Below the pieces are notes generated by a model. The model saw only the letters and a program-made list of their open reading frames with translations, searched no databases and had not been told where the DNA came from. Positions 12,116 to 62,287 of a DNA stretch of 64,000 nucleotides are shown piece after piece. The DNA lies in assembly GCF_964213995.1 (NCBI RefSeq), contig NW_027590192.1, forward strand, positions 1 through 64,000, read 5' to 3'. Numbering within the stretch: the first letter of the stretch is position 1; each line of letters starts with the position of its first letter. Source of the stretch: Mustelus asterias (lineage: Eukaryota). Made by a program: the position numbers and the translations under genes.

Positions 12116-12342
12116 ACTTCCTAACACCCTGTCACTCTGTGATCCTTGTGAAATCTGAAACCAGGTATTTGCAACAAGACTCAAAGAGCATCAGCCCACT
12201 GGAGGCAAAGTCATGAGACCGGCCAGTCCAGCAGAAAGAAACCCCCCGACCCTCCCCATTGACCAACTGTGAGAACGAACAAAATGCAGTCCTGGATGTA
12301 ATTGAGAGCAGAAACAATAACAGCAGAATCCAACCCCTGGAA

Positions 12343-13592: not shown

Positions 13593-13722
13593 GCAGGTCT
13601 GGCAGCATCTGTATGGAGAGAAAAGAACTGATGTTTCAGAGCTTTGACAAAGGGTCATCTAGACAAGAAACATCATTTTCTCTCTTGGTTTCAGATTTCA
13701 GCATCCGCAGTAATTTGCTTTT
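13593..13722. mobile_element. Penelope-derived miniature element replacing the conserved leader block in this ZNF intron
   Basis: gcaggtctggcagcatctgtatggagag; degenerate ttgacaaagggtcatctagac..gaaac; intron homology stops at ~13592. Confidence 0.5.
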
Positions 13723-14925
13723 ATAAGGCTGCAGATACCTCCTCCCAAGTAACATGCGTGTGTCCAAGACATCATCACTTGTTTCCCTTATTTCTTTAGC
13801 ACCCATGGTGCTCTCCGCAGAAAACACAGAGGAGAAGTATTCATTAAAAATCTCACCCATCTCCTGTGGCTCCACACACAGATGGCCATACTGATTTTTA
13901 AGGGGATCTATTCTCTCTCTGTCCACCCTTTTACTCTTAATATAGCTATAGAACCTCTTGGAATTTTCTTTAATCTTACCTGCCAGATCCATATCATACC
14001 CTCTTTCTGTCCTCCTGATTTCCCTCCTCAGTATTTTCTTACACTTTTTATAGTCAGAGTAATTCACTTGTCCCCGATTGCCTAAACCCAATCTATGCTT
14101 CCTTCTTTTACCTGACCAGAGCCTCAATGTCCCTTGTCTGCCAGAGATCCCTAAATTTACCATTCTTTCCCTTCATCTTAACAGGAATATACTGCCCCTG
14201 GACTCTTGATATCACACTTTCAAAACCTCCCAATTGCCAGTCATTCCTTTCCCTTCAAACAAATTCACCTAATCGACATCTGCTCGATCCTGCCTAATGC
14301 CCACAAAAGTGGCCCTGCTCCAGTTTAGGGCCTTGACTTGTGGACCTGTCCTATCTTTTTCCAGAACTATTTTGAAACTATTGGTGCTCCCAATAGTGCT
14401 CCCTGACTGACACTTCAGTCACTTGCTCCACCTCATTTCTTAACTGTCTAATAGAAAGTGATTCCAGGAATTGATAATGAAAAATAAGGAGCTGGGAGAT
14501 GAATTGAACAAGTATTTTGCCTCGGTGTTCACAATAGAGGATAGAGTTAAAACTCAGAAACAGCTGGAAATCAGAAAACAGAAGTGTGGGATGAACTCTG
14601 AAAAAGCACAATTCCCAGGGAAGTGGTCCTCAGCAAACTGTTGGAGCTGTGGGCTGATGAGTCCTCAGGTCCTGCTGGGCTTCATTCTCGGGTCTTAACA
14701 GAGTGAGAGAGTTGATGTGTTGTTCAATTTTCTAAAATTCCCCATCGGGAATTGGATAAAGGGAAACCGGTGGATGCGCTGTACTTAGATTTCCAGAAGA
14801 CATTTGATGAGGTGCCACATGAAAGGTTATTGCAGCAAATAAAAATTCATGCTGCGGGGAGAACATATTGGCGTGGATAGAAGATTGGCTCATAGCAAAC
14901 AGTGGGCAGAAATGGATCATTTTCT
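13723..14925. mobile_element. two old CR1 ORF2 fragments (- 13723-14450; + 14460-14925)
   Basis: KENSKRFYSYIKSKR, EIFNEYFSSVF; DELNKYFASVFT, LDFQKTFDEVPH. Confidence 0.8.
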
Positions 14926-14934
14926 GGGGTTTAA

Positions 14935-15785
14935 GAGAGAGAGAAACCTGGACCAACCTTTCCAGAGTCTGCACCCTCCCTGGATTCACTTCCTTTCCCT
15001 TCAGTTGCTGCAAGTCCCCAGTTTCCCCCCAGAATGAGAAAAGAAATGGAAAGGGGGAGAAAAGAAAGTGTTTTACTCACAGATGTTTGAGATAGGAGGA
15101 AGTTTGAGTCTGTCTGAAAATCAATCTTCATTCACACAAAGCCCGCGCTCTGATTGGCTGGAAGACCAGAGTCCTTCCGGTCCTCCAACTCTTCCCATTG
15201 GTCAACACCTCAGCATGAAGATCAGAGGGTGGGTTCTCCCCCGCACATGCGCAGCTTCCCCTCTCCCTCGCACATTTTGCAGTCCCGGGCCGGGGGGAGG
15301 GGGAGATCACCGAGCGGCTTCTTGCTCTTGCCGGAGCCGTCAGCCGGTTGCCTGGAAACCTTGGTTCAAGGAGATGTAGGGGAGGGGAACAATGGGTGGG
15401 GGCGGGGCTCCTGGGTCCGCGCGCCCGGGCCTGAGCACTGGAACCCGGAGACGTCACCGCGAAGCAGAGTGATTCCTATTGGCTGATTCAGGCAGGACTC
15501 TATTGTGACGTCACAATGCGGAAGTTGTCCAATGAGCTTCAGAGTGAAACTCCCTCCTCCGGACAACATCTGGGAGGAAATCAATGTTTCCCCCTTTCCA
15601 TTTCTTTTCTCATTCTGGGGGAAGTTGGGGACTTGCAGCAACTGAAGGAAATGAAGTGAATTCGGTCTGTATATTCCACACATTTTTACTCCAGTAATGC
15701 AGACATTTATCTGTCTGGCAGCCTGCATGGAAATTTTCAGCTCTCTGCATCCAGAGCAAGAAGCAGTGAGCATGGATCTGTCAAT
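14935..15785. promoter_or_regulatory. bidirectional ZNF promoter with inverted first-exon/intron arms
   Basis: CpG-rich; CCAAT/ATTGG boxes, CATGCGCA, perfect palindrome ATTGTGACGTCACAAT at 15502-15517, CGGAAGT; minus-strand donor GTGAGT at 15075-15080; arms ~14980-15060 and ~15590-15663 are reverse complements; homologue at 62160-62850. Confidence 0.75.
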
Positions 15786-16171
15786 CACACATGAGGACGG
15801 CCTCAACCGGGATCTTGGGTTCATATCACACTATCTGTAACCCCCACGACTTGCCTGGGCTTGCAAAATCTCACTAACTGTCCTGGCTGGAGACAATACA
15901 CATCTCTTTAACCTGTGCTTAACCCTCTCTCCACTCTCATTGTCTGTACCTTTAAGACTTGATTACGTTTAAAGACTCGTATTCCAACCATTATCTTGTA
16001 AATTGAGTTTGTGTCTTTATATGCCCTGTTTGTGAACAGAACTCCCACTCACCTGATGAAGGGGCAGCGCTCTGAAAGCTTGTGGCTTGTGCTACCAAAT
16101 AAACCTGTTGGATTTTAACCTGGTGTTGTGAGATTACTTACTGTGCTTACCCCAGTCCAACGCCGGCACAT
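15786..16171 (+). mobile_element. Penelope-like element 3' end (GIY-YIG C-terminus + 3' terminal region)
   Basis: THEDGLNRDLGFISHYL*, as at 63805-63860; interrupts the conserved leader block at ...ctgtcaatca|. Confidence 0.85.
16050..16084 (+). ncRNA. minimal type I hammerhead ribozyme in Penelope terminal region
   Basis: CAC-CUGAUGA-A-GGGGC(AGC)GCUCU-GAAA-GC-UU-GUG: both core boxes, stem II with two G-U pairs, palindromic AAGCUU stem III, stem I CAC/GUG. Confidence 0.7.
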
Positions 16172-16325
16172 CTTTGGACTGTGGAAGGAAAACCGGAACA
16201 TCCGGAGGAAACCCACACAGACACGGGGAGAATGTAGAAACTCTGCACAGACAGTGACCCGAGGCTGGAATTGAACCCGGGTCCCTGGCGCTGTTAGGCA
16301 GCTGCACTAACCACTGTGCCACCGG
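16166..16325 (-). mobile_element. HE1-like SINE tRNA-derived head and core
   Basis: Minus strand gtggcacagtggttagtgcagctgcc (A box), ggttcaattcc (B box). Confidence 0.8.
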
Positions 16326-16381
16326 GACACATGTCAGTGCCATCGCCCGACTCCAGCCCAGTCTCAGCTCATCTGGAACCG

Positions 16382-16460
16382 TCACCCATTCCACTGTGAC
16401 GTCACACTCTCACCCATTCCATTGTGATGTCACACCCTCACCCATTCCATTGTGACGTCA
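16382..16460. repeat. 28-bp tandem repeat x~2.8, each unit carrying a CRE or CRE-like site
   Basis: tcacccattccaYtgtgaYgtcacacYc units starting at 16382, 16410, 16438. Confidence 0.9.
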
Positions 16461-16731
16461 GGGCTTCACTCTCCGATCACAATCCCTGCCGGCCTCCCAC
16501 ATGCAGCCTCAATGGCGGCAGTCAGCCCGGGTCTAACACTACAAGCTGTCGCTCCATTTGCTACAAAGGGGGGGACCGGGAAGTTCATTTCCGGGTTTGG
16601 GTTTGAACAACATGTTTACAAAGTCTCTCCACCCACCCGCCACATTTATCATTCCCCGCACGCCGCCCACTACCTCGTATTGATCTCCCTTCCAAACTAA
16701 AACCGGCCGTCTGTCGCCATTACCCGCACTG

Positions 16732-16815
16732 ATGTGGAGATGCCGGCGTTGGACTGGGGTAAACACAGCAACAAGTCAAACAACACCAGGTTAAAGTCCA
16801 ACAGGTTTATCTGGT
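16732..16815 (-). mobile_element. short Penelope terminal fragment, inverted relative to 16093-16171
   Basis: Reverse complement aligns to accaaataaacctgttgga...ccagtccaacgccggca. Confidence 0.8.
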
Positions 16816-16819
16816 TCAC

Positions 16820-17040
16820 CCGCACTGCGCATGCTTCAGGTCCCGACTCTCATTCACTCCGATTGGTTGGAGGACCAGCCACTCCCGCTCGGTCCTCCAG
16901 TCCCGCCCCCTCCTCCTATTGGTCCGGAGCTGCCGTCAATCAATCCCCGGGCATTGTGATGTGGAGCATGCGCAGTGTCATTGCTGTCCTTGGCGCTTGT
17001 TTGTCCCGGAGAAGCGGAGTCAGCGTTAGGCGGTGGCTGG
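16820..17040 (+). promoter_or_regulatory. CpG-rich promoter of ZNF 17964
   Basis: TGCGCATGC 16826, ATTGG 16862 and 16918, GC box, CCGTCAATCA 16933, GCATGCGCA 16966. Confidence 0.7.
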
Positions 17041-17963
17041 GAGGATTTGGAAACACTTTGTGGATCCGCAAACCCTTCAGAATCATTGTCAGCTCCCTGG
17101 TTTGCAGCTGCGGGGCTTCTCCCTCCCTCCCTCCCGGGAACAGGCCCAGGTTAACGGCCCCATCCTGGCTCAGCCACTGGAGGATGGTTCACATCAGAGG
17201 ATGGGGGAGGGGGACAATAAATAAGAGGTTACACTTTGGCCTCAAATCAATGAGGACTCTGATCTCTGGGAAGGAAGGAAACCCTGGGAGGTGGGCGGGG
17301 AGGATTCACAAACACCCGCTGGAGGCCCCAACACCCCCAATAATACCCATTGGTTTTATTGTCAGTCTGCAGACAGGAGCTGGAGAACTGAACCCAGACA
17401 GAGGAGAGGGAGGGAGAAAACTGGGAGTGGAGGAAAGAAATGGTGAGATGGGTTTGGATTTCAGCCCAGGGAGGAGGGAGAGTGTGTGGCACGGGGATTT
17501 ACTGATTTGGGGGAACAAGAAAGGAAAAAATGTTCCAGAGAAACTAGAATTGTCTGTTCAGAGTTTGTATCGTGTTCTGACAGTGATGACTTTTCTAAAC
17601 TGTTTTTACAGGATATTGGAAGTGAAAGATTGGCAGACAGAAAACTCAAACCGGACATCACATCTGACAAAGTCATTCAGTTCCTTCGGAGCTGAATATC
17701 ATCGGTCTTTGAATGTGGAAGGAGAAATATTTGTCTGTTCTGCCTGTGGGCAAAGAAATTAAACATCAGTATGACCGGAAAAGTATCGAGACAAACACAC
17801 ACCCGAGTGAGAGTGTTCCAGTGAACTGAATGTGGAAAGAGCTTTAACCAGTTACACAGCCTGAAAAAACATCACAGTTCACAGCAGGGTGAAACTACGT
17901 GTATGTTGTGTGTGTGGATGTGGCTTGAACTGATCATCCAACCTGGAGAAACACAAGGGCACC

Positions 17964-23929: not shown

Positions 23930-24335
23930 GTCACAATGCCCAGCTGATTGACGGCAGCGTGGACCAATGGGAAGAGGGGGCAGACCTGGAGGACCGATCT
24001 GGAGCAGTTGGTCCTCCAACCAATAGGAGCGAACGAGGGGCGGGGCCACCTTTGACTCGAGCATGCGCAGTGTGAGTAATGGCGATGGAAAACGGTTTTT
24101 ATTTTGGGCTCGGAAATCTGTTCGAGGTGATTGGCGTTACGGAGAGAGCAATGGATCGTCCAGGTGGGTGGAAACGCTGCGTAAGCATGTTGTGAGAGTC
24201 GCAAAATGCGGAAGAGAGCTTCCCGGACCCAGTTTGCACCGAGCAGGCCTGCAGTTCCTCATGTTCGTCCCGGGTTAACGTTCGCCATTTTTATTGGGGG
24301 CAATAGGCAGCAGTGCGCATGTGCGGCCGCCATGT
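23930..24335. promoter_or_regulatory. CpG-rich promoter upstream of ZNF 25803; its core is an inverted homologue of 16855-16960
   Basis: TGATTGACGG 23945, CCAAT 23964 and 24020, GC box, GCATGCGCA 24061, YY1-like CGCCATTTT 24283. Confidence 0.7.
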
Positions 24336-25062: not shown

Positions 25063-25802
25063 TCACCCACGTTGGCAGCAAGTTCAATATCATCATCAAT
25101 CACAACCCCCCTGTATCTTCACTCACTGAAACAATCCAGTTAAAACATTCTTAGTCGAGAATGTAGCCATATTTCTTTTGGACTGGCAGCCTGCATGGAG
25201 ATTTTCAGCTCTGTGTCCAGGACAGGAAGCAGTGAGCGTGGATCTGTCAATCAGCCTCAATCAGCACCTTCAGGAGAATTGGGAGGGTGAATATTAGATA
25301 CAGCAGAGTGAGAATGGAGGGAGAGTGTGTGGGATGGAGATTTACAGCTTTTGGGGAATGAGAGAGGAAAGAATGTTCCATAGAAACTAGAATTGTCTGT
25401 TCTGAATTTCTATCCTGTACTGACACTGATGAATTTTGTAAATTGTTTTCACAGGATATTAGAGGAATCACACCGATAAATCTTAACGATCACATCTCGA
25501 TCTGACAGAGTCACTCGATTCCTTGGAAACTAAATATCCTTAGCCTCTGAATGGGAAGGAGAAATGTTTGACCGGTCTGTCTACTGCAAGATTTTAAGCA
25601 GCAGTGTGACTGGAAAAACACCGGGACACAAACACACACCCGAGTGAGAGTGTTCCAGTGCACTGACAGTGGAAAGAGCTTTAACCAGTGACACAGCCTG
25701 AAAAAACATCGCTGCATTCACAGTGGGGAGAGACTGTACCCGTGTTCTGTGTGGACAAGGCTTCAAATGATTGACCTCCAATGATACAAGGAGACCGACA
25801 AT

Positions 25803-26705: not shown

Positions 26706-27429
26706 CACACCAACAAGTTCACTAGTGAATATGGGGATTAGATTCTGCTGTTATTGTTTCTGCTCTCAATTACACCAGGACTGCATTTTGTTCATTCTCA
26801 CAGTTGGTCAATGGGGAGGGTCGGAGGGTTTCTTTCTGCTGGACTGGCCGGTCTCACGACTTTGCCTCCAGTGGACCGATGCTCTTTCAGTCTTGTTGCA
26901 AATACCTGGTTTTCAATTTCACAAAGATCACAGAGTGACCGGGTGTTAGGAAGTTCAGAGATATTTAGTCAGAATTTCTGTTTGAAACCCCCCAAATGTC
27001 CATCCAATTTCCTTTGTAATTGTTTATTGTCTCCACTTCCTCCACCCTCGTAGGCAGGGAGTTCCAGGTCATTACCATTCGCTGCATCAAAATATTCTTC
27101 ATCACATCTCCACCTGCATCTCTGACCCAAAACCTTCAATCTATGTCCCCCTCATCCTTGTCCCATCAGCTAATGGGAACAGCTTTTCTTTGTCCACTTT
27201 ATCTAAACCTGTCAGAATCTTGTCCACCTCTATCAAATCTCCCCTCAACCTCCTTTGCTCCAGGGGGAACAACCCCAGCCTGACATTGACAATAAAGAAC
27301 AAACTAACAGAATATGTTAATACCTGAAATCAAATGTGCAGGTCGAATTTCTGTTTTGAAAATATTGCAAACATATTGTCCTGGACAATAAAGGAATTGG
27401 AATAACTCACCTTGGGTGTGGGTGAAATG

Positions 27430-31693: not shown

Positions 31694-34600
31694 TCAAGCT
31701 ATCCCACTCCCTACCATCCTGGTGTGCTCCATGTGCCTATCCAATAACCACTTAAATGTTCCTAAAGTGTCTGACTCCACTATCACTGCAGGCAGTCCAT
31801 TCCACACCCCAACCACTCTCTGCGTGAAGAACCTACCTCTGATATCCTTCCTATATCTCCCACCATGAACCCTATAGTTATGCCCCCTTGTAATAGCTCC
31901 ATCCACCCGAGGAAATAGTCTTTGAACGTTCACTCGATCTATCCCCTTCATCATTTTATAAACCTCTATTAAGTCTCCCCTCAATCTCCTCCGCTCCAGA
32001 GAGAACAGCCCCAGCTCCCTCAACCTTTCCTCATAAGACCGACACTCCAAACCAGGCAGCATCCTGGTAAATCTCCTCTGCACTCTTTCCAGCGCTTCCA
32101 CATCCTTCCTATAGTGAGGTGACCAGAACTGCACGCAATATTCCAAATGCGGTCTCACCAAGGTCCTGTACAGTTGCAGCATAACCCCACGGCTCTTAAA
32201 CTCCAACCCCCTGTTAATAAAAGCTAACACACTATATGCCTTCTTCACAGCTCTATCCACTTGAGTGGCAACCTTTGGAGATCTGTGGATATGGACCCCA
32301 AGATCTCTCTGTTCCTCCACAGTCTTCAGAACCCTACCTTTGACCCTGTAATCCACATTTAAATTTGTCCTACCAAAATGAATCACCTCACATTTATCAG
32401 GGTTAAACTCCATTTGCCATTTTTCAGCCCAGCTTTGCATCCTATCTATGTCTCTTTGCAGCCTACAACACCCCTCCACCTCATCCACTACTCCACCAAT
32501 CTTGGTGTCATCAGCAAATTTACTGATCCACCCTTCAGCCCCCTCCTCTAAGTCATTAATAAAAATCACAAAGAGCAGAGGACCAAGCACCGATCCCTGC
32601 GGCACTCCGCTAGCAACCTGCCTCCAGTCCGAAAATTTTCCATCCACCACCACCCTCTGTCTTCGATCAGATAGCCAGTTACCTATCCAATCGGCCAACT
32701 TTCCCTCTATCCCACACCTCCTTACTTTCATCATAAGCCGACCATGGGGGACCTTATCAAACGCCTTACTAAAATCCATGTATATGACATCAACCGCCCT
32801 ACCTTCATCAACACACCTAGTTACCTCCTCAAAAAATTCTATCAAATTTGTGAGGCACGATTTACCCTTCACAAATCCGTGCTGACTATCCCGGATTAAT
32901 CCGCATCTTTCTAAATGGTCGTAAATCCCATCCCTCAGGACCTTTTCCATCAATTTACCAACCACCGAAGTCAGACTAACCGGTCTATAATTACCAGGGT
33001 CATTTCTATTCCCTTTCTTAAACAGAGGAACAACATTTGCCACTCTCCAGTCCTCTGGCACCATCCCCGTGGACAGCGAGGACCCAAAGATCAAAGCCAA
33101 AGGCTCTGCAATCTCATCCCTCGCCTCCCAAAGAATCCTAGGATACATTTCATCAGGCCCAGGGGACTTATCGACCTTCAGTTTATTCAAAACTGCCAAT
33201 ACATCCTCCCTCCGAACATCTATTTCCTCCAGCCTATTAGCCTGTAACACCTTCTCTTCCTGAAAAACATGGCCCCTCTCCTTGGTGAACACTGAAGAAA
33301 AGTATTCATTCATCACCTCGCCTATCTCTACTGATTCCATACACAAGTTCCCACCACTGTCCTTGACCGGCCCTAACCTCACCCTGGTCATTCTTTTATT
33401 CCTCACATAAGAGTAAAAAGCCTTGGGGTTTTCCTTGATCCGACCCGCCAAGGACTTCTCATGTCCCCTCCTAGCTCTCCTCAGCCCCTTTTTCAGCTCA
33501 TTCCTTGCTAACTTGTAACCCTCAATCGAGCCATCTGAACCTTGTTTCCTCATCCCTACATAAGCTTCCCTCTTCCTTTTCACAAGACATTCCACCTCTT
33601 TTGTGAACCACGGTTCCCTCACTCGGCCATTTCCTCCCTGCCTGACAGGGACATACCTATCAAGGACACCCAGTATTTGTTCCTTGAAAAAGTTCCACTT
33701 TTCATCAGTGCCTTTCCCTGACAGTTTCTGTTCCCATCTTATGCCCCCTAATTCTTGCCTAATCGCATCATAATTACCTCTCCCCCAATTGTAAGCCTTG
33801 CCCTGCCATCCGGCCCTATCCCTCTCCATTGCAATAACAAAAGACACCGAATTGTGGTCACTATCTCCAAAGTTCTCTCCCACAACCAAATCTAACACTT
33901 GGCCCGGTTCATTTCCCAGTACCAAATCCAATGTGGCCTCACCCCTTGTCGGCCTATCCACATATTGTGTCAGGAAACCCTCCTGCACACACTGCACAAA
34001 AAGTGCCCCATCCAAACTATTTGACCTACAAAGGTTCCAATCAATATTTGGAAAGTTAAAGTCCCCCATGACAACTACCCTGTGACCCCCACACGTATCC
34101 ATAATCTGCTTAGCAATTTCTTCCTCCACATCTCTATTACTATTTGGGGGCCTATAGTAAACTCCTAGCAGCGTGACCGCTCCTTTCCTGTTTCTAACTG
34201 CAGCCCATATTACCTCTGTGTGCATATCCCCCTCAAAGTGCTTTTCCGCAGCCGTTAAACTATCCTTGATTAACAATGCTACTCCTCCACCTCTTTTACC
34301 AGCTTCCCTACACTTACTGAAACATCTATACCCCGGAACGTCCAACAACCATTCCTGTCCTTGTTCTACCCACGTCTCCGTAATGGCCACAACATCGTAG
34401 TCCCAAGTAGCAATCCACGCCCCAAGTTCATCCACCTTGTTCCGGATGCTCCTTGCATTGAAGTAGACACACTTCAACCCATCTTCCTGTCTACCGGTAC
34501 CCACCCTTGACCTTGATACCTTCCCCAATATCTCACCACCCTCAACACTGACTTCCGGACTACAACTCCTTTTCCCACTCCCCTGACAAATTAGTTTAAA
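31694..34600 (-). CDS. CR1 ORF2p: APE endonuclease + reverse transcriptase (no AUG upstream of the endonuclease domain)
   Basis: NARS, ITETW, GDFN, SDH; [14 protein letters not shown]; stop-free frame 34711-31694; start placed at the putative slippery site. Confidence 0.9.
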   Translation of the reverse strand, partial: FKLICQGSGKRSCSPEVSVEGGEILGKVSRSRVGTGRQEDGLKCVYFNARSIRNKVDELGAWIATWDYDVVAITETWVEQGQEWLLDVPGYRCFSKCREAGKRGGGVALLIKDSLTAAEKHFEGDMHTEVIWAAVRNRKGAVTLLGVYYRPPNSNRDVEEEIAKQIMDTCGGHRVVVMGDFNFPNIDWNLCRSNSLDGALFVQCVQEGFLTQYVDRPTRGEATLDLVLGNEPGQVLDLVVGENFGDSDHNSVSFVIAMERDRAGWQGKAYNWGRGNYDAIRQELGGIRWEQKLSGKGTDEKWNFFKEQILGVLDRYVPVRQGGNGRVREPWFTKEVECLVKRKREAYVGMRKQGSDGSIEGYKLARNELKKGLRRARRGHEKSLAGRIKENPKAFYSYVRNKRMTRVRLGPVKDSGGNLCMESVEIGEVMNEYFSSVFTKERGHVFQEEKVLQANRLEEIDVRREDVLAVLNKLKVDKSPGPDEMYPRILWEARDEIAEPLALIFGSSLSTGMVPEDWRVANVVPLFKKGNRNDPGNYRPVSLTSVVGKLMEKVLRDGIYDHLERCGLIRDSQHGFVKGKSCLTNLIEFFEEVTRCVDEGRAVDVIYMDFSKAFDKVPHGRLMMKVRRCGIEGKLADWIGNWLSDRRQRVVVDGKFSDWRQVASGVPQGSVLGPLLFVIFINDLEEGAEGWISKFADDTKIGGVVDEVEGCCRLQRDIDRMQSWAEKWQMEFNPDKCEVIHFGRTNLNVDYRVKGRVLKTVEEQRDLGVHIHRSPKVATQVDRAVKKAYSVLAFINRGLEFKSRGVMLQLYRTLVRPHLEYCVQFWSPHYRKDVEALERVQRRFTRMLPGLECRSYEERLRELGLFSLERRRLRGDLIEVYKMMKGIDRVNVQRLFPRVDGAITRGHNYRVHGGRYRKDIRGRFFTQRVVGVWNGLPAVIVESDTLGTFKWLLDRHMEHTRMVGSGIA

Positions 34601-35517
34601 TCCCCCTGAAGAGCCGTAGCAAATTTCCCTCCCTGGATATTGGTGCCCCTCTGGTTCAGGTGCACCCCGTCCTGTTTGTAGAGGTCCCACCTTCCCCAGA
34701 ACGTGTTCCAATTATCCACGTATCTGAAACCCTCCCTCCTGCACCATCCCTGCAACCACATGTTTAAGTGCACTCTCTCCCTGTTCCTCAACTCGCTATC
34801 ACGTGGCACCGGTAGCGTACCAGAGATGACCACATGTTTTGTCTTTGCTCTCAGCTTCCAGCCCAGCTCCCGAAATTCCTGTTTTAAATCCCCGTCCCTT
34901 CTCTTACCTATGTCGTTGGTACCAATGTGTACCACGACTTGTGACTGTTTCCCCTCCCCCTTAAGAATCCGGAAAACACGGTCCGAGACGTCACGGACCC
35001 TGGCATCCGGTAGGCAACAAACCATCCACGAGTCTCTTTTGCTGCCACAGAACCTCCTATCTATCCCTCTAACTAACGAGTCCCCAATAACTATTGCCCT
35101 CCCGCTCTCCTCCTTACCCTCCTGAGCCACAGGGACGGACTCAGTGCCGGAGATCCTCTCACTGCGGCTCACCACTGGTATGTCGTCCCCCTCAACCGTA
35201 TCCAAAGCGGAATACTTGTTGCTAAGGGGAACGACCACAGGGGATCCCTGCACCGACTGCTTCTTCCCAGCCCCTCTCACCGTCACCCATCTATTTTCAT
35301 TCCGCGGAGTAACTGTATCCCTGAAGCTTCTGTCTATGGCCATCTCTGCATCCCTAATGATCCTAAGTTCCTCCAACTCCAGCTCCAGTTCCCTTACACG
35401 GTTTTGGAGGAGCAGCAGATGGATGCACTTCTCACAGGTATAATCAGCAGGGACATTGACGTCGTCCCTCACCTCGAACATAGTGCAAGAGGAACATTGC
35501 ACTGCCTTCACGCCCAT
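34591..35517 (-). CDS. CR1 ORF1p: zinc finger/leucine zipper + SGNH esterase domain
   Basis: CSSC...CEKC, LLQNRVRELELELEELR, GDSLVRG, GTND, DGVH. Confidence 0.9.
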   Translation of the reverse strand: MGVKAVQCSSCTMFEVRDDVNVPADYTCEKCIHLLLLQNRVRELELELEELRIIRDAEMAIDRSFRDTVTPRNENRWVTVRGAGKKQSVQGSPVVVPLSNKYSALDTVEGDDIPVVSRSERISGTESVPVAQEGKEESGRAIVIGDSLVRGIDRRFCGSKRDSWMVCCLPDARVRDVSDRVFRILKGEGKQSQVVVHIGTNDIGKRRDGDLKQEFRELGWKLRAKTKHVVISGTLPVPRDSELRNRERVHLNMWLQGWCRREGFRYVDNWNTFWGRWDLYKQDGVHLNQRGTNIQGGKFATALQGDLN

Positions 35518-39251: not shown

Positions 39252-40549
39252 GGTGCGGGTGTCCTTGTGACTCTCCAGGTTAAACAATCAGTTAAATCTC
39301 ACACAGAACACGGGTACAGTCTCTCCCCACTGTGAATGCTGTGATGCACTTTCAGGCTGTGTAACTGGTTAAAGCTCTTTCCACACTCAGTGCACTGGAA
39401 CACTCTCACTCGGGTGTGTGTATCTCAGTGCATTTCTCGTCACAGCGATGTTTACAATCTTTTGAAGCCAAGAGGCCAAACAAACATTTCTCCTGTTAGA
39501 TTCAAAGGCCGATGATATTCAGGTCCCAAGAAATCGAGTCACTCTGTCAGATCTCGATGTGATGTTGGAGATTTCTGTCTGATTTCTCCTTGTCTAATAT
39601 CCTGTAAGTCAATTTAGAAAAAACATCGCAATTCAGAATATGATCGAAATTCAAATCTACATTTCTAGTTCATGGAGCATTCATTAAAGACACAGTCATG
39701 GAGCATTAAACCTGCCCAGCAGGGCCTCCCGTATCAGCACACAGGCAGCTGCTTTGTGAGACTGCCAGCAGTACAGACAAGTCAGAGATAAGGGTGGCCT
39801 CAGAAGTGGGATTCATTGTGAAAGCTCAGGGACGGTTGATAAGATGCAGCAATTCTATGATTCTAATGAACATTCTTTCCCCTCTCATTCCCCAAAAGCT
39901 GTGAATCTCCATCCCACACACTCTCCCTCCATTCTCACTCTGCTGTATCTAATATTCACCCTCCCAATTCTCCTGAAGGTGCTGATTGAGGCTGATTGAC
40001 AGATCCATGTTCACTGCTTCCTGTCCAGCACAGAAATCAGAACAAATAGGAGCTGCAGTCAGCATTCGGCCCATCGAATCTGCTCAACCATTCATTGAGA
40101 TTATTGGTTGATCTACCTCTGCATTATTTTCCCCACACTGTCCCCCATATCCATCGATATCTTCAATATCTAGAAACCTATCAATCCCTCTCTTGAAAAT
40201 TCTTGATGACTGAGGCTCTATAGTCCTCTGGGGTAGAGAATCCAAAACATCACCACATCCTTGAGTGAAGAAATCCTTCCTCATCTGAGCTTTCTCTCCA
40301 TTTTCCAGCCTGTTCCCAATAATTATTGACTCCCTTGTCATTCAAAAACTGTCCAACTCATCCTTGAATATATTCAATCCCTCCACTGGTCCCTATGGAA
40401 GAGAAATCTAGATATTAACAATTCTCTGAGGGAAGAGATTGTTGGAAATATATAATATAGCTGCAGTCCAAAATTACACAGCCAGATATAATAAGTGTAT
40501 TTTATTACAGAGCTATAAATAATATATCGAACCATATAACAACAGGGGA

Positions 40550-40935: not shown

Positions 40936-41619
40936 ACCATCAGACACGTCTCTGTCCGATATTAGTTTACTGTCCCCTTTAATATATTTCAGAAATTAGA
41001 TGGGCACATGAAGGAAATAAAGTTGTCGGAGGAAAGGAAATATAGAAAGGAATGGGACTGACTGGATTCTTCTACAGAGAGTCGGCATGGATTCGAGTTA
41101 CTGAATGGACTCCTTCTGCGCTGTAATGACTCGATGAGTGGAAATATATCACATAGCTTCAGTGTTACATTACAAGATGAGAAATAATAATAAACGTACT
41201 TTGTTACAGAACCATAAATAATATATCAAATCTACAATGTAACAACACTAAGCATATCTCTGCCCTATATTAATTTATTGTTCTCTTAAATGTCAGCCTT
41301 CTCCTGGGGAAACCAGCCCTTTAATTGTGAACATTCGGAAAGGGACCATCCTTTTAGCCAGACAAATCAATGTGTCAAGCTGAGGGAGCAAAGGATGTCA
41401 ATGTCTTTAAGTCAGAGAGAGGGGGACCTGAGCCAACCTTTCCAGAGTCTGCAGCCTCCCTGGATTCACTCCCTTTCCCTTCAGTTGCTGCAAGTCCCTA
41501 ATTTCCCCCAGAATGAGAAAAGAAATGGAAAGGGGGATAAAAGAATGTGTTTTACTCACAGATGTGGGGGACAGAAGGAAGTTTGAGTCTGTCTGTACTC
41601 AATATTCATTCAGAGAGAC

Positions 41620-43207
41620 CTCTTTTTAGGTCAAACCAAACCAAGTAAACAAACTCAGATTAAATCAGGACAAAGTAAAAGGGGCAGCTCCCCAAAAAGG
41701 AGGGGGAACAGCCCGAACAGAAATCAAAATACAAAGGAAACTTAAAAACATCAAATTAAAATGTGATTATTAGGGTCAATAATGCACCCCAACCCCTGCG
41801 GTGCCCAGCGGGCGCGGAAGGCGTCAACCTCGCCCGTGGACACCACATGCTCCCTCTCCAGGGACACCTGGCCGCGAACGTAGCCGCGGTAGAGGGGAAG
41901 ACAGTCAGGATGGACGGCCCCCTCGATCGCCCGCAGCCTGGACCGGTAAATGGCGCATTTCGCCAGGCCCAGGAGCAGGTTCACGAGGAGGTCGCCATCC
42001 CGACCCTCCCCTCTCCGCACCGGGTGTCCGTAGATCAGGAGCGTGGGACTGAAGTGCAGACAAAACATCAACAAAAGGTTCTTTAGGAAAACAGAAAGGG
42101 AGTGCAGCCTAAGACACTCAACATAGACATGGTCCACGGACTCCACAAGGCCGCAGAAAGGGCAGTCTTCGGAGCCCGTGAACCAGTGAATCCTACGGTT
42201 GTGCGGAACTGCTGCATGCATCACCCTCCACCCCAGGTCCCCGACGTAATTGGGGGAGATCCCTCCGTAGAGGGACCTCCACTGAGGACCTCCACTGCCC
42301 GGCAGCAACAAGGCCCGCCAAGGTGTATCCGGGCGACAGGCGAGGAGGCAGTAGTGGAGGGTGTGCAGCAGCAGCCCGCACAGGAAACGCCTCTGCGCGG
42401 TAGAAAAAGGCACGGATGACATTTCCGCGAGGCGGCTCAGGCTGTGGGGCACCTCACCCAGGGGAGGGGGCTGAGGCTTTGGGCCAATGCGGAATTCCGC
42501 CCGAACAGGGGAACGCTCGGGCGGGATTCCACCGCAAGCATGTGCCGCCTCAAGACCGCGTGCACTTTTGGGGCCGAGCATGACCGTCCTAAGGTCTTGG
42601 ATGGCTTTGGCTTTGGACACCCCCGCGCGCTCAGCACGTCCCCGATTCTGGTCACCCCGGCGTCCACAGCCCTCCTCTCCGCCAGCCACCTGAAGTTATA
42701 CGGCTGGAGGAGCGGATTCCTGAGCAGCGGCTCTCGCACGAGAGCCGCTACTCCTGACGGGGGAGAGCTGCGTCGCGAGTCGACCGTGTTCCAGACAGTG
42801 AGGAGGTCCTGGTAAAAGACGGGCAACTCCTGCAGGGCGGTCGAAGCACGCCCCAGTTCGATATGCAGGAGCTGCACGTCATAATTGAGGCCGTGCCACT
42901 GGCGGAAGAAATACGTCGCCATGGCACACCACTGTGGAGGGGGCTCAACGTAAAGGTACCTCTGCAGGGCCTGGAGGCGGAAGGTCGCTATCTGAGTGCG
43001 GAGGCACACCAGACCTTGTTCGCCCTCCCCAAGTGGGAGATGCAGAACCACGGCAGGGACCCAGTGCAGTCGATTGTCCCAGAAGAACCGCAGGAGGGTT
43101 CTCTGGATATTGGCTACAAAGCCAGGGGGAGGGGTCAAAGGGACCAGCCGGGACCACAGCATGGAGGCGAACACCTGGTTTATGACGAGAACCCGCGCCC
43201 GTGAATG
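41620..43207 (-). mobile_element. 5'-truncated Tx1/L1-clade LINE (RT C-terminus, CCHC zinc domain, 3' UTR)
   Basis: RVLVINQVFASMLWSRL, FFWD, LPLGEGEQGL, DLGWRVMH, CPFCGLVESVDHVYVEC; GC-rich; 3' end ...taaaaagag. Confidence 0.85.
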
Positions 43208-45195: not shown

Positions 45196-45836
45196 TCGGT
45201 GGTAAGATCTAAATCTGTGTATGACGCCAGGAAGCCTTAAGCCCAGAGTGAGAATATTTCAGAACCAGGATTCAAAATACATGGCTGTGGAGGGTGAATT
45301 CACCCTCAAAAGGGCCGTGGAAATTCTGTCATGGGTGGAACTACTGGAAGAAAAATCACCCTGTACATGGGAGAGACAGAAACTATGAGGACCATCTCCT
45401 CCAATCACAGATTCTGTCTCTCCCGATGTTGCTACATCTGCAGAGACAGAGTCGCAAATTGGAGGAACAGCTTTGCCACCTATTTTGAGAAAGGAAGGTC
45501 ACTGACTCAGCAGCCTGTCTGTGATGTGTGGAGGAGTTGTGTCTTCCTGCTATAAAACTAGTTTCATAGCAATGTGAACCTCAAAAGGAATGATCCAACC
45601 ATTGACAGCACGGAGCTTTCCCCATTCTGCTGAACATTATTTTTCTATATCTCAGTAGGTGGGGTGTACAGCTCAGGAATTTGAGTAACCAGGTATTCTG
45701 AACTTACTTACAATCACTAGGGTCATCACATAGAAATTAGATACATTCATCCAGGTTCATTACCTGAGAATGAACAAAATGCAGTCCTGGATGTAATTGA
45801 GAGCAGAAACAATAACAGCAGAATCCAACCCTGGAA

Positions 45837-46331: not shown

Positions 46332-47237
46332 GGTGCGGGTGTCCTTGTGACTCTCCAGGTTAAACTATTAGTTCAATCTCACACAGAACACGGGTACAGT
46401 CTCTCCCCACTGTGGATGCTGCGATGTATTTTCAGGCTGTGTAACTGTTTAAAGCTCTTTCCACAGTCAGTGCACTGGAACACTCTCACTCGGGTATATG
46501 TGTGTCACGGCATTTTTCCAGTCACATTTATGCAAAAAGAAAGTCTGAAGCAGACAGAACAGAAAAATATTTCTCCTTTTAGATTGAAAGGCCGATGGTA
46601 TTCACGTCCAGATGAACTGAATGACTGTCAGAATTTGACATGACATTTGTTCGAGATTTCTGTCTGTCAATCCTCACCACCTCATATTCTGTGAAAGGAG
46701 TTTACAAAAGTCATCACAGTCAGCACAGATTAGAAATTCAGAACAGACAATTCTAGTTTCTATGGAACATTGTTTCCTCTCTCATTCCCCAAAAGCTGTG
46801 AATCTCCATCCCACACACTCTCCCTCCATTCTCACTCTGCTGTATCTAATATTCACCCTCCCAATTCTCCTGAAGGTGCTGATTGAGGCTGATTGACAGA
46901 TCCATGCTCACTGCTTCCTGCCCTGGACACAGAGAGCTGAAAATCTCCATGCAGGCGGCCAGACAGATATATGTCTCTATTACGGGCCTAAAAATATGTT
47001 TAATGGATAGAATTGTTTCAGTTGGCTAAGATACAGGGGGCTACAATTGATCATGATCTTGAACTACTTGTGAGGGTGTCCAAGCAGAGATGATCAATAA
47101 CTTGGAAATGAAATTGGAGGTGCTGCAGAATGGGATCCACTCGACACTGACAGAAAGTCGGCATTGACCCAAATGGTCCAATGGACTCCTTCTGTGCTGT
47201 AATGACTCTATTACTGGAAATATATCCCGTAGCTACA

Positions 47238-47832: not shown

Positions 47833-48214
47833 CGACCGTACGATATTACAGATTAGAAATAATAATAAATGTACATTACTGCAGAACCATACATGTCTAA
47901 TCTTGCCATATGACAATACTGAACATATCTCTAATCTATATTAATTTACAGTCCCCTTAAATGTCAGATATTTCCTGGGGAAACCAGCCCTTTAATTGTG
48001 AACATTAGGAAAGGGACCTTTGAGCCAGACAAATCAATGTGTCAAGCTGAGGGAGCAAAGGATGTCAATGTCTTTAACAGAGAGAGACCTGGGCCAACCT
48101 TTCCAGAGTCTGCAGCCTCCCTGGATTCACTTCCTTTCCCTTCAGTTGCTGCAAGTCCCCAATTTCCCCCAGAATGAGAAAAGAAATGGAAAGGTGGAGA
48201 AAACAAAGTGTTTT

Positions 48215-48829
48215 ACTCACAGATGTTGGAACAGGAGGAAGTTTCAGTCTGTCTGATGCCCTATCTTCATTCACGCAAAAAAGCCACGCTCCGATTGGCT
48301 GGGAAACCTGAGGCCTTCCGGTCCTCCAACTCTTCTCATTGGCCAGAGCTAGACAGTGAATCAAAAATGCGCATGTGCGAGTTTTTAGGGTAAATGCGCA
48401 TGTGCGGGTGTGGGGCGGGGCCCGGACAAAGCCGGCGCACTGACCATTGTCTGTCCGGGTCTTCCAGCCTTTCCCCTTGGACAACAGCTCAGCGCGGCTG
48501 GAGGGCAAAGTCCCGCCCACCCCCACGTGGGGCTCCGCCCCTCATTGTCTGTCTGCGGGGGATTGACCAATGGGAACTCTGGAGGACCGGAAGGACTCTG
48601 CTCCGGTCCTGCCTCTCACAGGCTCTGGCCAATGGGCATCCTGGAGGACCGGAAGGACTCCAGCCTCCAGCCAATCAACGCTCCTCCATTGTCTGAATGC
48701 GGAAGTGGACAATGAGCTTGTTCAGCTGCTCATTCCTGCCCAGCAAAACTAACTGCTGCTCTCTCTCTGAATGAAGATTGAGCTTCAGACAGACTCAAAC
48801 TTCCTCCTGTCTCTCCAACATCTGTGAGT
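48215..48829. promoter_or_regulatory. bidirectional promoter and both first exons of divergent pair ZNF 45837(-)/ZNF 51593(+)
   Basis: Donors GTGAGT at 48215-48220 (-) and 48824-48829 (+); two TGCGCATGTGCG, CCAAT boxes, GC boxes, CGGAAGT. Confidence 0.8.
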
Positions 48830-50699: not shown

Positions 50700-51592
50700 A
50701 CTGAAGGGAAAGGAAGTGAATCCAGTCTGTACATTCCACACATTGTTAGTCCAGTCAGATAGACATATATCTGTCTGGCAGCCTGCATGGAGATTCTGAG
50801 CTCTCTATGTCCAAGACAGGAAGCAGTGAGCATGGATCTGTCAATCAGCCTCAATCAGCACCTTCAGGAGAATTGGGAGGGTGAATATTAGATACAGCAG
50901 AGTGAGAATGGAGGGAGAGTGTGTGGGATGGAGATTCACAGATTTTGGGGAATGAGAGAGGAAAGAATGTTGACGAGAATCAGAGAATTCCTCCATCTTA
51001 TCAGCCATCCCTGAGCCATCATAATGAATCCCTCTTCTCAGTATACCCTTATCTCTGACTTGTCTGTGCTGCTGGCAGTCTCACAAAGCAGCTGCCTGTG
51101 TGCTGATACGAGAAGCCCTGCTCGGCAAGTTTAATGCTCCATGACTGTGTCTTTAAAGAATGTTCCATAGAAACTAGAATTGACTGATTTGAATTTTGAT
51201 CATGTACTGAATTGTGATGTTTTTCTTAAATTGAATTACAGGATATTAGATGAGGAGAAATCACAGACAGAAATCTAAAATGTCAGATCTGGATCTGACA
51301 GAGTGACTCGATTCCTTGGGACCTGAATATCATCAGGCTCTGAATCTAGAAGGAGAAATGTTTGCCCGGTCTATCAGCTTCAGAAGATTTTAAACATCAG
51401 TGTGACTGGAAATGCACTGAGACACACACAGCCGAGTGAGAGTGTTCCAGTGCACTGTGTGTGGAAAGAACTTTAACCAGTTACACAGCCTGAAAATACA
51501 TCGCAGCATTCACAGCGGGAGAGACTGTACCCGTGTTCTGTGTGAGATTTAACTGATTGTTTAACCTGGAGAGTCACAAGGACACCCGCACC

Positions 51593-52351
51593 ATGGAGAA
51601 ACGGTGGAAATGTGGAGACTGTGGGAAGAGATACAGATTCCCATCATATCTCGAAGCTCATCGGCGCATTCACACTGGAGAGAGGCCATTCACTTGCCCT
51701 TGGTGTGGGATGGGATTCAGTATTGTATCCACCCTGCAGAGACACGCACGAATTCACACTGGGCAGAGGCCGTTCACCTGCTCTCAGTGTGGGAAGGCAT
51801 TCGCTCATGCATCCACCCTACAGGCACACCAGCGAGTTCACACTGGGGAGAGGCCATTCACCTGCACTGTATGTGGGAAGGGATACACTCAATTATCCAG
51901 CCTGCAGTCACACCAGCGAGTTCACACTGGGGAGAGACCGTTCACCTGCTCTGTATGTGAGAAGGAGTTCACTCGGCTATCTAGCCTGCAGGTACATCAG
52001 CGAGTTCACACCGGGGTGAGGCCATTCACCTGCTCTCAATGTGGGAAGGGATTCAATGATTTATATGCCCTGCAAACACATCAGCGAGTTCACACTGGAG
52101 AGAAACCATTCACCTGCTCTCAGTGTGGGAAGGGATTCACTCAGTTATGCAACCTGCATACACACCAGCGAGTTCATACTGGGGAGAGACCATTCTGCTG
52201 CACTCAATGTGGGAAGGAAAACAGAGATTCATCCACCCTGCGGACACACCAGCGAGTTCACACCGGGGAGAGGCCATTCACCTGCTCTGTGTGTGAGAAG
52301 GGATTCAGAGTTTCATCCAGCCTGCTGAGACACCAGCGAGTTCACAAGTGA
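51593..52351 (+). CDS. C2H2 zinc-finger protein, 9 fingers
   Basis: accATGG MEKRWKC; open to TGA 52349-52351; acceptor ttacag at ~51241. Confidence 0.9.
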   Translation: MEKRWKCGDCGKRYRFPSYLEAHRRIHTGERPFTCPWCGMGFSIVSTLQRHARIHTGQRPFTCSQCGKAFAHASTLQAHQRVHTGERPFTCTVCGKGYTQLSSLQSHQRVHTGERPFTCSVCEKEFTRLSSLQVHQRVHTGVRPFTCSQCGKGFNDLYALQTHQRVHTGEKPFTCSQCGKGFTQLCNLHTHQRVHTGERPFCCTQCGKENRDSSTLRTHQRVHTGERPFTCSVCEKGFRVSSSLLRHQRVHK

Positions 52352-60537: not shown

Positions 60538-61844
60538 GGTGCGGGTGTCCTTGTGACTCTCCAGGTTAAACAATCAGTTAAATCTCACACAGAACACGGG
60601 TACAGTCTCTCCCCGCTGTGAATGCTGCGATGTATTTTCAGGCTGTGTAACTGGTTAAAGCTCTTTCCACACTCAGTGCACTGGAACACTCTCACTCGGG
60701 TGTGTGTATCTCAGTGCATTTCTAGTAAAAGTGATGTTTACAATCTTTTGAAGCCAAGAGGCCAAACAAATATTTCTCCTGCTAGATTCAAAGGCCGATG
60801 ATATTCAGGTCTCAAGAAGTCGAGTCACTCTGTCAGATCTCGATGTGATGTTGGAGATTTCTGTCTGATTTCTCCTTGTCTAATATCCTGTAAGTCAATT
60901 TAGAAAAAAAATCACAATTCAGAATACGATCAATATTCAAATCTACATTTCTAGTTTATGGAGCGTTCATTAAAGACACAGTCATGGAGCATTAAACTTG
61001 CCCAGCAGGGCCTCCCGTATCAGCACACAGGCAGCTGCTTTGTGAGACTGCCGGCAGTACAGACAAGTCAGAGATAAGGGTGTCCTCAGAAGTGGGATTC
61101 ATTGTGAAAGCTCAGGGACGGTTGATAAGATGCAGCAATTCTATGATTCTAATGAACGTTCTTTCCTCTCCCATTTCCCAAAAGACGTGAGCCTCCATCC
61201 CGCACACTCTCCCTCCATTCTCACTCTGCTGTATCTAATATTCACCCTCCCAATTCTCCTGAAGGTGCTGATTGAGGCTGATTGACAGATCCATGCTCAC
61301 TGCTTCCTGTCCAGCACAGAAATCAGAACAAATAGGCGCTGCAGTCAGCATTCGGCCCATCGAGTCTGCTCAACCATTCATTCAGATTATTGGTTGATCT
61401 ACCTCTGCATTATTTTCCCCACACTGTCCCCCATATCCATCGATATCGTCAATATCTAGAAACCTATCAATCCCTCTCTTGAAAATTCTTGATGACTGAG
61501 GCTCTATAGTCCTCTGCGGTAGAGAATCCAAAACATCACCACATCCTTGAGTGAAGAAATCCTTCCTCATCTGAGCTTTCTCTCCATTTTCCAGCCTGTT
61601 CCCAATAATTATTGACTCCCTTGTCATTCAAAAACTGTCTAACTCATCCTTGAATATATTCAATCCCTCCACTGGGAGAGAAATCTAGATACTAACAATT
61701 CTCTGAGGGAAGAGATTGTTGGAAATATATAATATAGCTGCAGTCCAAAATTACACAGCCAGATATAATAAGTGTATTTTATTACAGAGCTATAAATAAT
61801 ATATCTAATCTGTACCATATAACAACAGGGGAGCTGATCGACTC

Positions 61845-62050: not shown

Positions 62051-62287
62051 CTCCTGGGGAAACCAGCCCTTTAATTGTGAACATTAGGATAGGGACATTT
62101 TTGCCAGACAAATCAATGTGTCAAGCTGAGGGAGAAAATGACTTTATGAGAGAGAGAGAGACCTGGGCCAACCTTTCCAGAGTCTGCAGCCTCCCTGGAT
62201 TCACTTCCTTTCCCTTCAGTTGCTGCAAATCCCCAATTTTCCCCAGAATGAGAAAAGAAATTGAATGGTGCAAAAAAAAACTGTTTT

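Follow-up and report, generated by a model that had tools for sequence, protein, structure and literature searches.

Human non-allelic gene conversion has been estimated to proceed in tracts of 250 bp at about ten times the mutation rate, with a small average effect (Harpak et al., 10.1101/135152). Non-coding identity within a large gene family has been described in the mouse V1R genes, where peaks of 500-1,000 bp, particular to each subfamily, lie at the start site and the authors raise gene conversion (Stewart and Lane 2007, PMC1955453). The 5' region of the zebrafish FiNZ-ZNF genes is matched by a single morpholino in 447 of 684 cases, and autoregulation has been proposed (Wells et al. 2023, PMC10547256); that paper mentions neither gene conversion nor sharks. 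DECA-CCAAT is described as a composite element of PBX/PREP, NF-Y and Sp2 (10.64898/2026.02.16.706105). Species without a full PRDM9 have stable, promoter-directed recombination hotspots, and some cartilaginous fish are reported to lack SSXRD (Baker et al. 2017, PMC5519329).

Here we describe a 91-nt block in a cluster of C2H2 zinc-finger (ZNF) genes on contig C160 of the shark Mustelus asterias; the whole stretch analysed, 64,000 nucleotides long, is referred to as the window. The block is the core of an identity island of about 100 bases in more than 1,000 C2H2 genes, which, judging from the sequence and with a probability of roughly 0.75, is kept uniform across ~1,500 assembled copies by non-allelic gene conversion biased to well-matching donors. 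It would work like non-allelic gene conversion elsewhere, and would differ in its copy number, its shortness and its near-perfect identity across subfamilies. It shares with non-allelic conversion and concerted evolution in duplicates and repeats (10.1101/135152; Fawcett and Innan, PMC6598467) mosaics, variants found in more than one copy, a slowing with divergence and a final escape. Unlike the loci behind the human estimate (10.1101/135152), the block is about 100 bp long, non-coding, present in ~1,500 copies on several contigs, dominated by singletons and free of detected GC bias, and the conversion/mutation ratio inferred for it (110-160) would be about ten times the human average. As in the V1R genes (PMC1955453), the identity is non-coding and sits close to the 5' ends of the genes in a large family; the block, however, is shorter, near-perfect, shared across subfamilies and found 0.2-3 kb downstream of the exon-1 donor, and a second island in the window, here called type Z, is closer to the V1R peaks than the block is. 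The FiNZ-ZNF genes (PMC10547256) also have a uniform 5' region in a huge fish ZNF family, but there the uniform part is a coding effector exon, whereas the block has neither an effector domain nor a coding signal. The block contains a DECA-type decamer, and the ZNF promoters have DECA and then CCAAT, yet the DECA-CCAAT spacing of about 10-11 bp (10.64898/2026.02.16.706105) is not that of the block, where CCAAT lies within 20 nt of the decamer in 0 of 63 cases. Like the PRDM9-less hotspots (PMC5519329), it would be a region at the 5' ends of genes that stays hot over time; those, however, are allelic crossover hotspots, whereas the zone described here is deduced from sequence, and the block contains no CpG. 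Among openly accessible papers, a literature search found no published description of the block.

Positions are numbered from the start of the block, +1 being 50833, and its copies in the window are the following.

50833..50923, + strand: the 91-nt block, core of the identity plateau (exact match; 53-mer counts)
25239..25329, + strand: identical block copy (exact 91-mer)
39917..40007, - strand: identical block copy, with an upstream flank of type D (TE-derived, unrelated to the flank at 50833)
46814..46904, - strand: identical block copy (exact 91-mer)
61203..61293, - strand: identical block copy, also with a type D flank; the following 48 nt hold 9 differences
15713..15787, + strand: block copy cut short at +15, where a Penelope-like insertion begins (sequence comparison)

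The first-pass annotation of the window had listed five exact copies, and all five agree in position and strand, with 0 differences at 910 compared sites. Outside the block the same copies differ by 10% at +92..+139, 22.6% at +218..+400 and 6% at +401..+530. The identity claimed for the 91 nt stands; the length does not, the plateau extending from about +3 to +102 with a shoulder from -18. Within +3..+102 diversity stays at 0.008-0.026, whereas it is 0.10-0.33 across most of the following 300 nt, +92..+139 forming a mosaic shoulder downstream of the block. Per-site variation (~0.8%) is uniform over the exon half and the intron half, and G skew reaches 0.79 over +49..+139. The sixth copy, said to be cut by an insert, does end at 15787. 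That insert, which we take to be Penelope, matches the end of the window's Penelope-like open reading frame (ORF) at 83% over 179 nt; no Pfam family was assigned to this ORF.

In the 3.68-Gb genome there are 1,024 matches to the exact 53-mer in the exon half (+2..+54) and 1,099 to one entirely within the intron (+49..+101), with 147 to the next 53 bases (+108..+160). Reversed control patterns gave 0 genome-wide matches, against 1,024 for the pattern itself, hence the copy number is far above chance. Whilst the five copies are real, the scale of a block thought to be family-wide needs revision in both directions, as they belong to a set of more than 1,000 and many ZNF units are without it. A metagenome scan for the block returned 0 loci. 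Copies were counted in contiguous stretches of C160 and contig C71 totalling 1.264 Mb, the C71 stretches having been picked for holding exact block matches. Of 70 BLAST matches there, 11 shorter than 85 nt were dropped; 59 were near full length and 32 exact. Scaling from the 39 exact 53-mers in these 59 copies gives ~1,550 assembled copies, which is an upper limit, since 36 kb of sequence from the window (12349-48811) recurs on C71 at 99.75% identity, apparently as a haplotig or very recent segmental duplication. Differences per copy number 0-3 in 53 of the 59 and 8-16 in six, none having 4-7. All six of these escaped copies carry G at +20, and two escaped haplotypes have diverged in the 5' half only (8/48 differences there and 0/43 in the remainder for one, 10/48 and 1/43 for the other).

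The genes are arranged as promoter, exon 1, intron, candidate 66-nt exon 2 (-18..+48), intron 2 and exon 3, with the block made up of the 3' part of candidate exon 2 and the start of intron 2.

48817..48829, + strand: end and donor of exon 1, about 2 kb upstream of the block; not homogenised like the block
about 50815..50880, + strand: candidate cassette exon 2 (66 nt) in the 5' leader (sequence); upstream AG mutated here
50881..51241, + strand: intron 2, of which the first ~54 nt belong to the plateau; this copy carries a subfamily insertion
51242..52351, + strand: exon 3, with degenerate leader fingers and then the C2H2 array ORF from the ATG at 51593

The donor-like GAGG/GT reported in the block is present, and the exon-2 acceptor AG is kept in 27 of 59 copies and absent from 32. 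Candidate exon 2 preserves the frame and is open in the frame TGSSEHGSVNQPQSAPSGELGG, which hints at a once-coding N-terminal exon, no present constraint having been found. Loose contig ends connect the exon-3 acceptor with sequence resembling the end of exon 1 in 6 cases in run X1 and 11 in run X9, both guessed to be RNA; one X9 contig spans the block and the intron unspliced; and a block-to-exon-3 joint is missing from the joints listed (15 of 93), which does not establish its absence. On account of these three observations exon 2 remains a candidate. The upstream flanks of block copies fall into several mutually unrelated types, and six copies without a homologous exon 3 have 0-1 block differences. 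In a head-to-head subfamily (G000:C160:70943 and five relatives), a near-perfect block has no homologous exon 3 behind it, and about 150-230 nt upstream a neighbouring gene begins on the opposite strand. A degenerate leader finger (window ~51410-51420 and paralogues) has an in-frame TGA in 39 of 44 copies matching the test pattern.

Retroelements are also found in these genes. The 3' end of a Tx1-like retroelement lies inside a ZNF exon 1 (window 41560-41900, - strand), and non-tandem Tx1-like ends in 1.26 Mb are mostly at two points of exon 1. Window 31694-34711 (- strand) has a 1,005-codon open frame, labelled from its sequence as a LINE-type reverse transcriptase. The block as a sequence-specific retroelement target was rejected, with 0 of 35 Tx1-like 3' ends inside it and the junctions scattered.

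Identity exceeding that of the flanks, noted for the window's copies, extends to many more, with flank differences of 3% to 30% and about 1.2% in the block. The relationship was followed in 39 copies, namely the 59 less six without a homologous exon 3, nine near-duplicates and five escaped copies. Across their 741 pairs, block distance is 0.6% in the 3% flank bin and 1.1-1.8% in the six bins that cover flank distances of 8% to 31% (Spearman 0.07). Eleven disjoint twin pairs differ by 0.9% in the block, 3.1% upstream and 3.9% downstream; an excess of twin divergence at +140..+217 proved to be an alignment artefact of the subfamily insertion, direct alignment giving 2.6%. On a tree made from half of exon 3 with 92 of 116 copies, for which the copies with G at +20 had been obtained by searching for G, the retention index is 0.09 in the block, then 0.20, 0.28 and 0.31 down the intron, and 0.51 at held-out exon-3 sites. 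Sites +20, +105 and +137 take as many steps as shuffled labels do (ratios 0.94, 0.89 and 0.98), the median step ratio of 36 held-out exon-3 sites being 0.495. One clade of 11 copies contains all four allele pairs at both +123/+136 (4, 3, 3 and 1 copies) and +20/+105 (5, 4, 1 and 1), and within it consensus alleles replace clade alleles patchwise.

50852..50852, + strand: position +20; C here, mostly G in organism E, always G in the six escaped copies

At this position both G and C are found in three or more subfamilies whose upstream flanks are unrelated, and one 300-kb cluster accounts for 6 of the 27 G copies. Exact 53-mers in this genome have G in 27 cases and C in 1,024, with G accounting for 1,749 of 1,893 depth (92%) in organism E, 0 of 45 in D, 13% in A and 2.6% in F. 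The majority of G in organism E and its rarity here point to family-wide turnover of the kind known from concerted evolution, as seen at the one site +20. Gene conversion, which the first-pass annotation had offered as an alternative to a control cassette, is therefore supported by flank-independent identity, tree discordance, the allele pairs, escape and the turnover at +20.

The window also contains an island in genes without the block.

16956..17488, + strand: second identity island, type Z, unrelated to the block (sequence comparison)

Type Z characterises a block-less ZNF subfamily, and runs from below a DECA-CCAAT promoter via exon 1, intron 1 and exon 2 to the point homologous to +94. 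It is 390-530 bases long; most full copies are 99-100% identical over about 390 nt, and near-identical up to the +94 homologue. The 100 nt upstream are 2-8% different or unrelated, and exon 3 differs by 10-20% between sub-lineages. A CpG-containing 53-mer from type Z has 554 exact copies genome-wide, the decamer at the island edge carries variants, and G skew at the intron start is 0.61-0.65. Intron 1, at its start, and the 3' UTR hold additional short islands of exact identity, at 48079-48194, 62153-62228, 12277-12339, 26775-26857 and 45765-45831, and the finger repeats also hold smaller ones. As islands recur in the family, homogenisation needs neither the uORF of the block nor its sequence.

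Under match-biased conversion, breaks in or near the island would be repaired from any of ~1,500 near-perfect donors, of which the best-matching would be favoured; new mutations would be reverted to the majority before spreading, and copies losing too much similarity would escape. If the variant share equals mutation/(mutation + conversion), conversion would proceed at ~110-160 times the mutation rate. Candidate triggers are promoter-like open chromatin, a G-skewed intron start that may be prone to R-loops in both islands, and donor abundance or self-reinforcement. A more speculative extension, which we consider unlikely, is that the 5' ends of shark ZNF genes are dedicated, PRDM9-independent conversion hot zones that start from a PBX/PREP-bound site and an R-loop tract with G skew, where the leader of ~1,500 genes is synchronised by majority rule and promoter modules are re-paired with finger arrays at a swap point, in a KRAB-less transposon-sensing family. 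A search for PRDM9 through SSXRD gave no match in this genome, nor in any control.

The readings to be weighed against conversion invoke function in the DNA, the peptide or the RNA, or recent common origin. Two features at the block bear on the first two of these.

50838..50847, - strand: PBX/PREP-type decamer TGATTGACAG, CCAAT partner absent, not preferentially protected
50832..50891, + strand: uORF MDLSISLNQHLQENWEGEY followed by a stop, unspliced (translation; no codon-position constraint)

That each copy is kept by purifying selection as a family-wide cis-element (PBX/PREP, a multi-finger repressor platform or a splicing element), conversion merely assisting, we consider improbable. Star-like variants in the block, the sharp 3' edge at about +103 and a consensus nearly unchanged across the four organisms compared would all fit such selection; moreover, the antisense decamer TGATTGACAG is exact in the block, as had been claimed, and both islands start at or beside such a decamer. 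However, when either the 8-nt decamer core or a motif-free neighbouring 8-mer was freed from 1,197 exact 35-mers, the core added 78 copies and the neighbour 89 (p 0.44), so stronger conservation of the core was not found. In the promoters, TGATTGACGG sites are followed by CCAAT 9-10 nt later in 32 of 35 cases (for example at window 16915-16942 and 23945-23968), and what we presume to be NRF1-like and GC-box motifs are also present there. With an unprotected core, and CCAAT in 0/63 against 32/35 in promoters, the PBX/PREP site fails as the cause of the identity. Nor would selection per copy readily explain why the intron half is as invariant as the exon half, why identity persists without the acceptor AG (32/59) or without exon 3, why many ZNF units do without the block, and why block distance does not track relatedness. 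By our inference, the ~0.8% variant share would imply a selection strength of the order of 100 times the mutation rate, which is too low to be effective; at that strength distance should scale with relatedness, which is not seen, and selection is disfavoured for this reason. A regulatory function beneath conversion is possible.

Translation and selection of the uORF, or of the in-frame 22-codon exon peptide, seems to us extremely unlikely, even though the uORF is as described, with GTG as its start in the copy at 25239, its start context is good and its frame is open in most copies, the 66-nt exon preserves frame, and the change at +20 alters no amino acid of the uORF. Freeing ten third positions of the uORF, against the 1,197 exact 35-mers, adds 92 copies and freeing ten second positions 74 (p 0.19), which is no excess of synonymous over amino-acid-changing variants; as uORF second positions are the third positions of the exon-frame peptide, neither frame shows periodicity, and the micropeptide was discarded as the cause of the identity. 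Invariance is the same at synonymous sites as in the intron, the peptide has no Pfam family, no longer homologue of the 40-aa frame was found (weak evidence), and contigs of two runs join the exon-1-like end straight to exon 3. Homology acting at the RNA level, with the block as a small-RNA source or target or with repair templated by nascent transcripts, is very unlikely: type Z begins right below the promoter motifs and spans what is presumed to be the initial 500 nt of the pre-mRNA, block and intron are crossed unspliced in contigs of runs guessed to be RNA, and head-to-head genes could yield antisense RNA, but folding is weaker than that of shuffles on both strands (z +1.5 and +1.1), introns are homogenised rather than lost, and small-RNA targeting tolerates mismatches. 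The small-RNA or structured-RNA option was set aside, and a structured ncRNA or miRNA precursor with it, in view of the lack of an Rfam match or a stable hairpin. We give least credence of all to copies alike merely through recent duplication or assembly polishing; the 36 kb of the window recurring on C71 means that the counts include duplicates or haplotigs, yet flanks are up to 30% different or unrelated, and contigs of independent runs contain the same block, with a depth in run X15 of 13,600-17,400 as against 300-1,500 in diverged flanks.

Several observations sit less easily with conversion. Of 21 block variants 20 are singletons (Tajima's D -2.58), an excess that is unexpected under unbiased conversion and expected under purifying selection; in a toy simulation (short runs, unfitted) all-singleton samples arose only with match-weighted donors. 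The block consensus is well kept across the organisms compared, which is predicted equally by match-biased conversion and by selection. Organism E has at least one majority difference in the block as against about 15 in exon 3, among 40 of 244 listed, which fits selection too. The frequency of alleles common to different clades is not raised in the shoulder, at 0.041 as against 0.043 in exon 3, and breakpoints are not in excess at the block (12 and 10 per 60 nt, vs 11-24). No GC bias was detected in block or shoulder, where variants are few and power low, and such a bias is no strict requirement. The divergence spike beside the block is due to one clade (9.7% in 4 pairs vs 4.1% in 7 others). 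Site +115 follows the tree, and 6 of the 36 held-out exon-3 sites also look random.

Extreme identity in the leaders of a gene family may hence reflect recombination and not function, and calls for caution in its interpretation. With more than 1,000 copies and two independent islands, these genes form a natural data set on donor choice, tract length and escape. The near-invariant 100-mer also means that one guide or probe could reach most of the shark ZNF family, and the island may mark recombination sites in cartilaginous fish.
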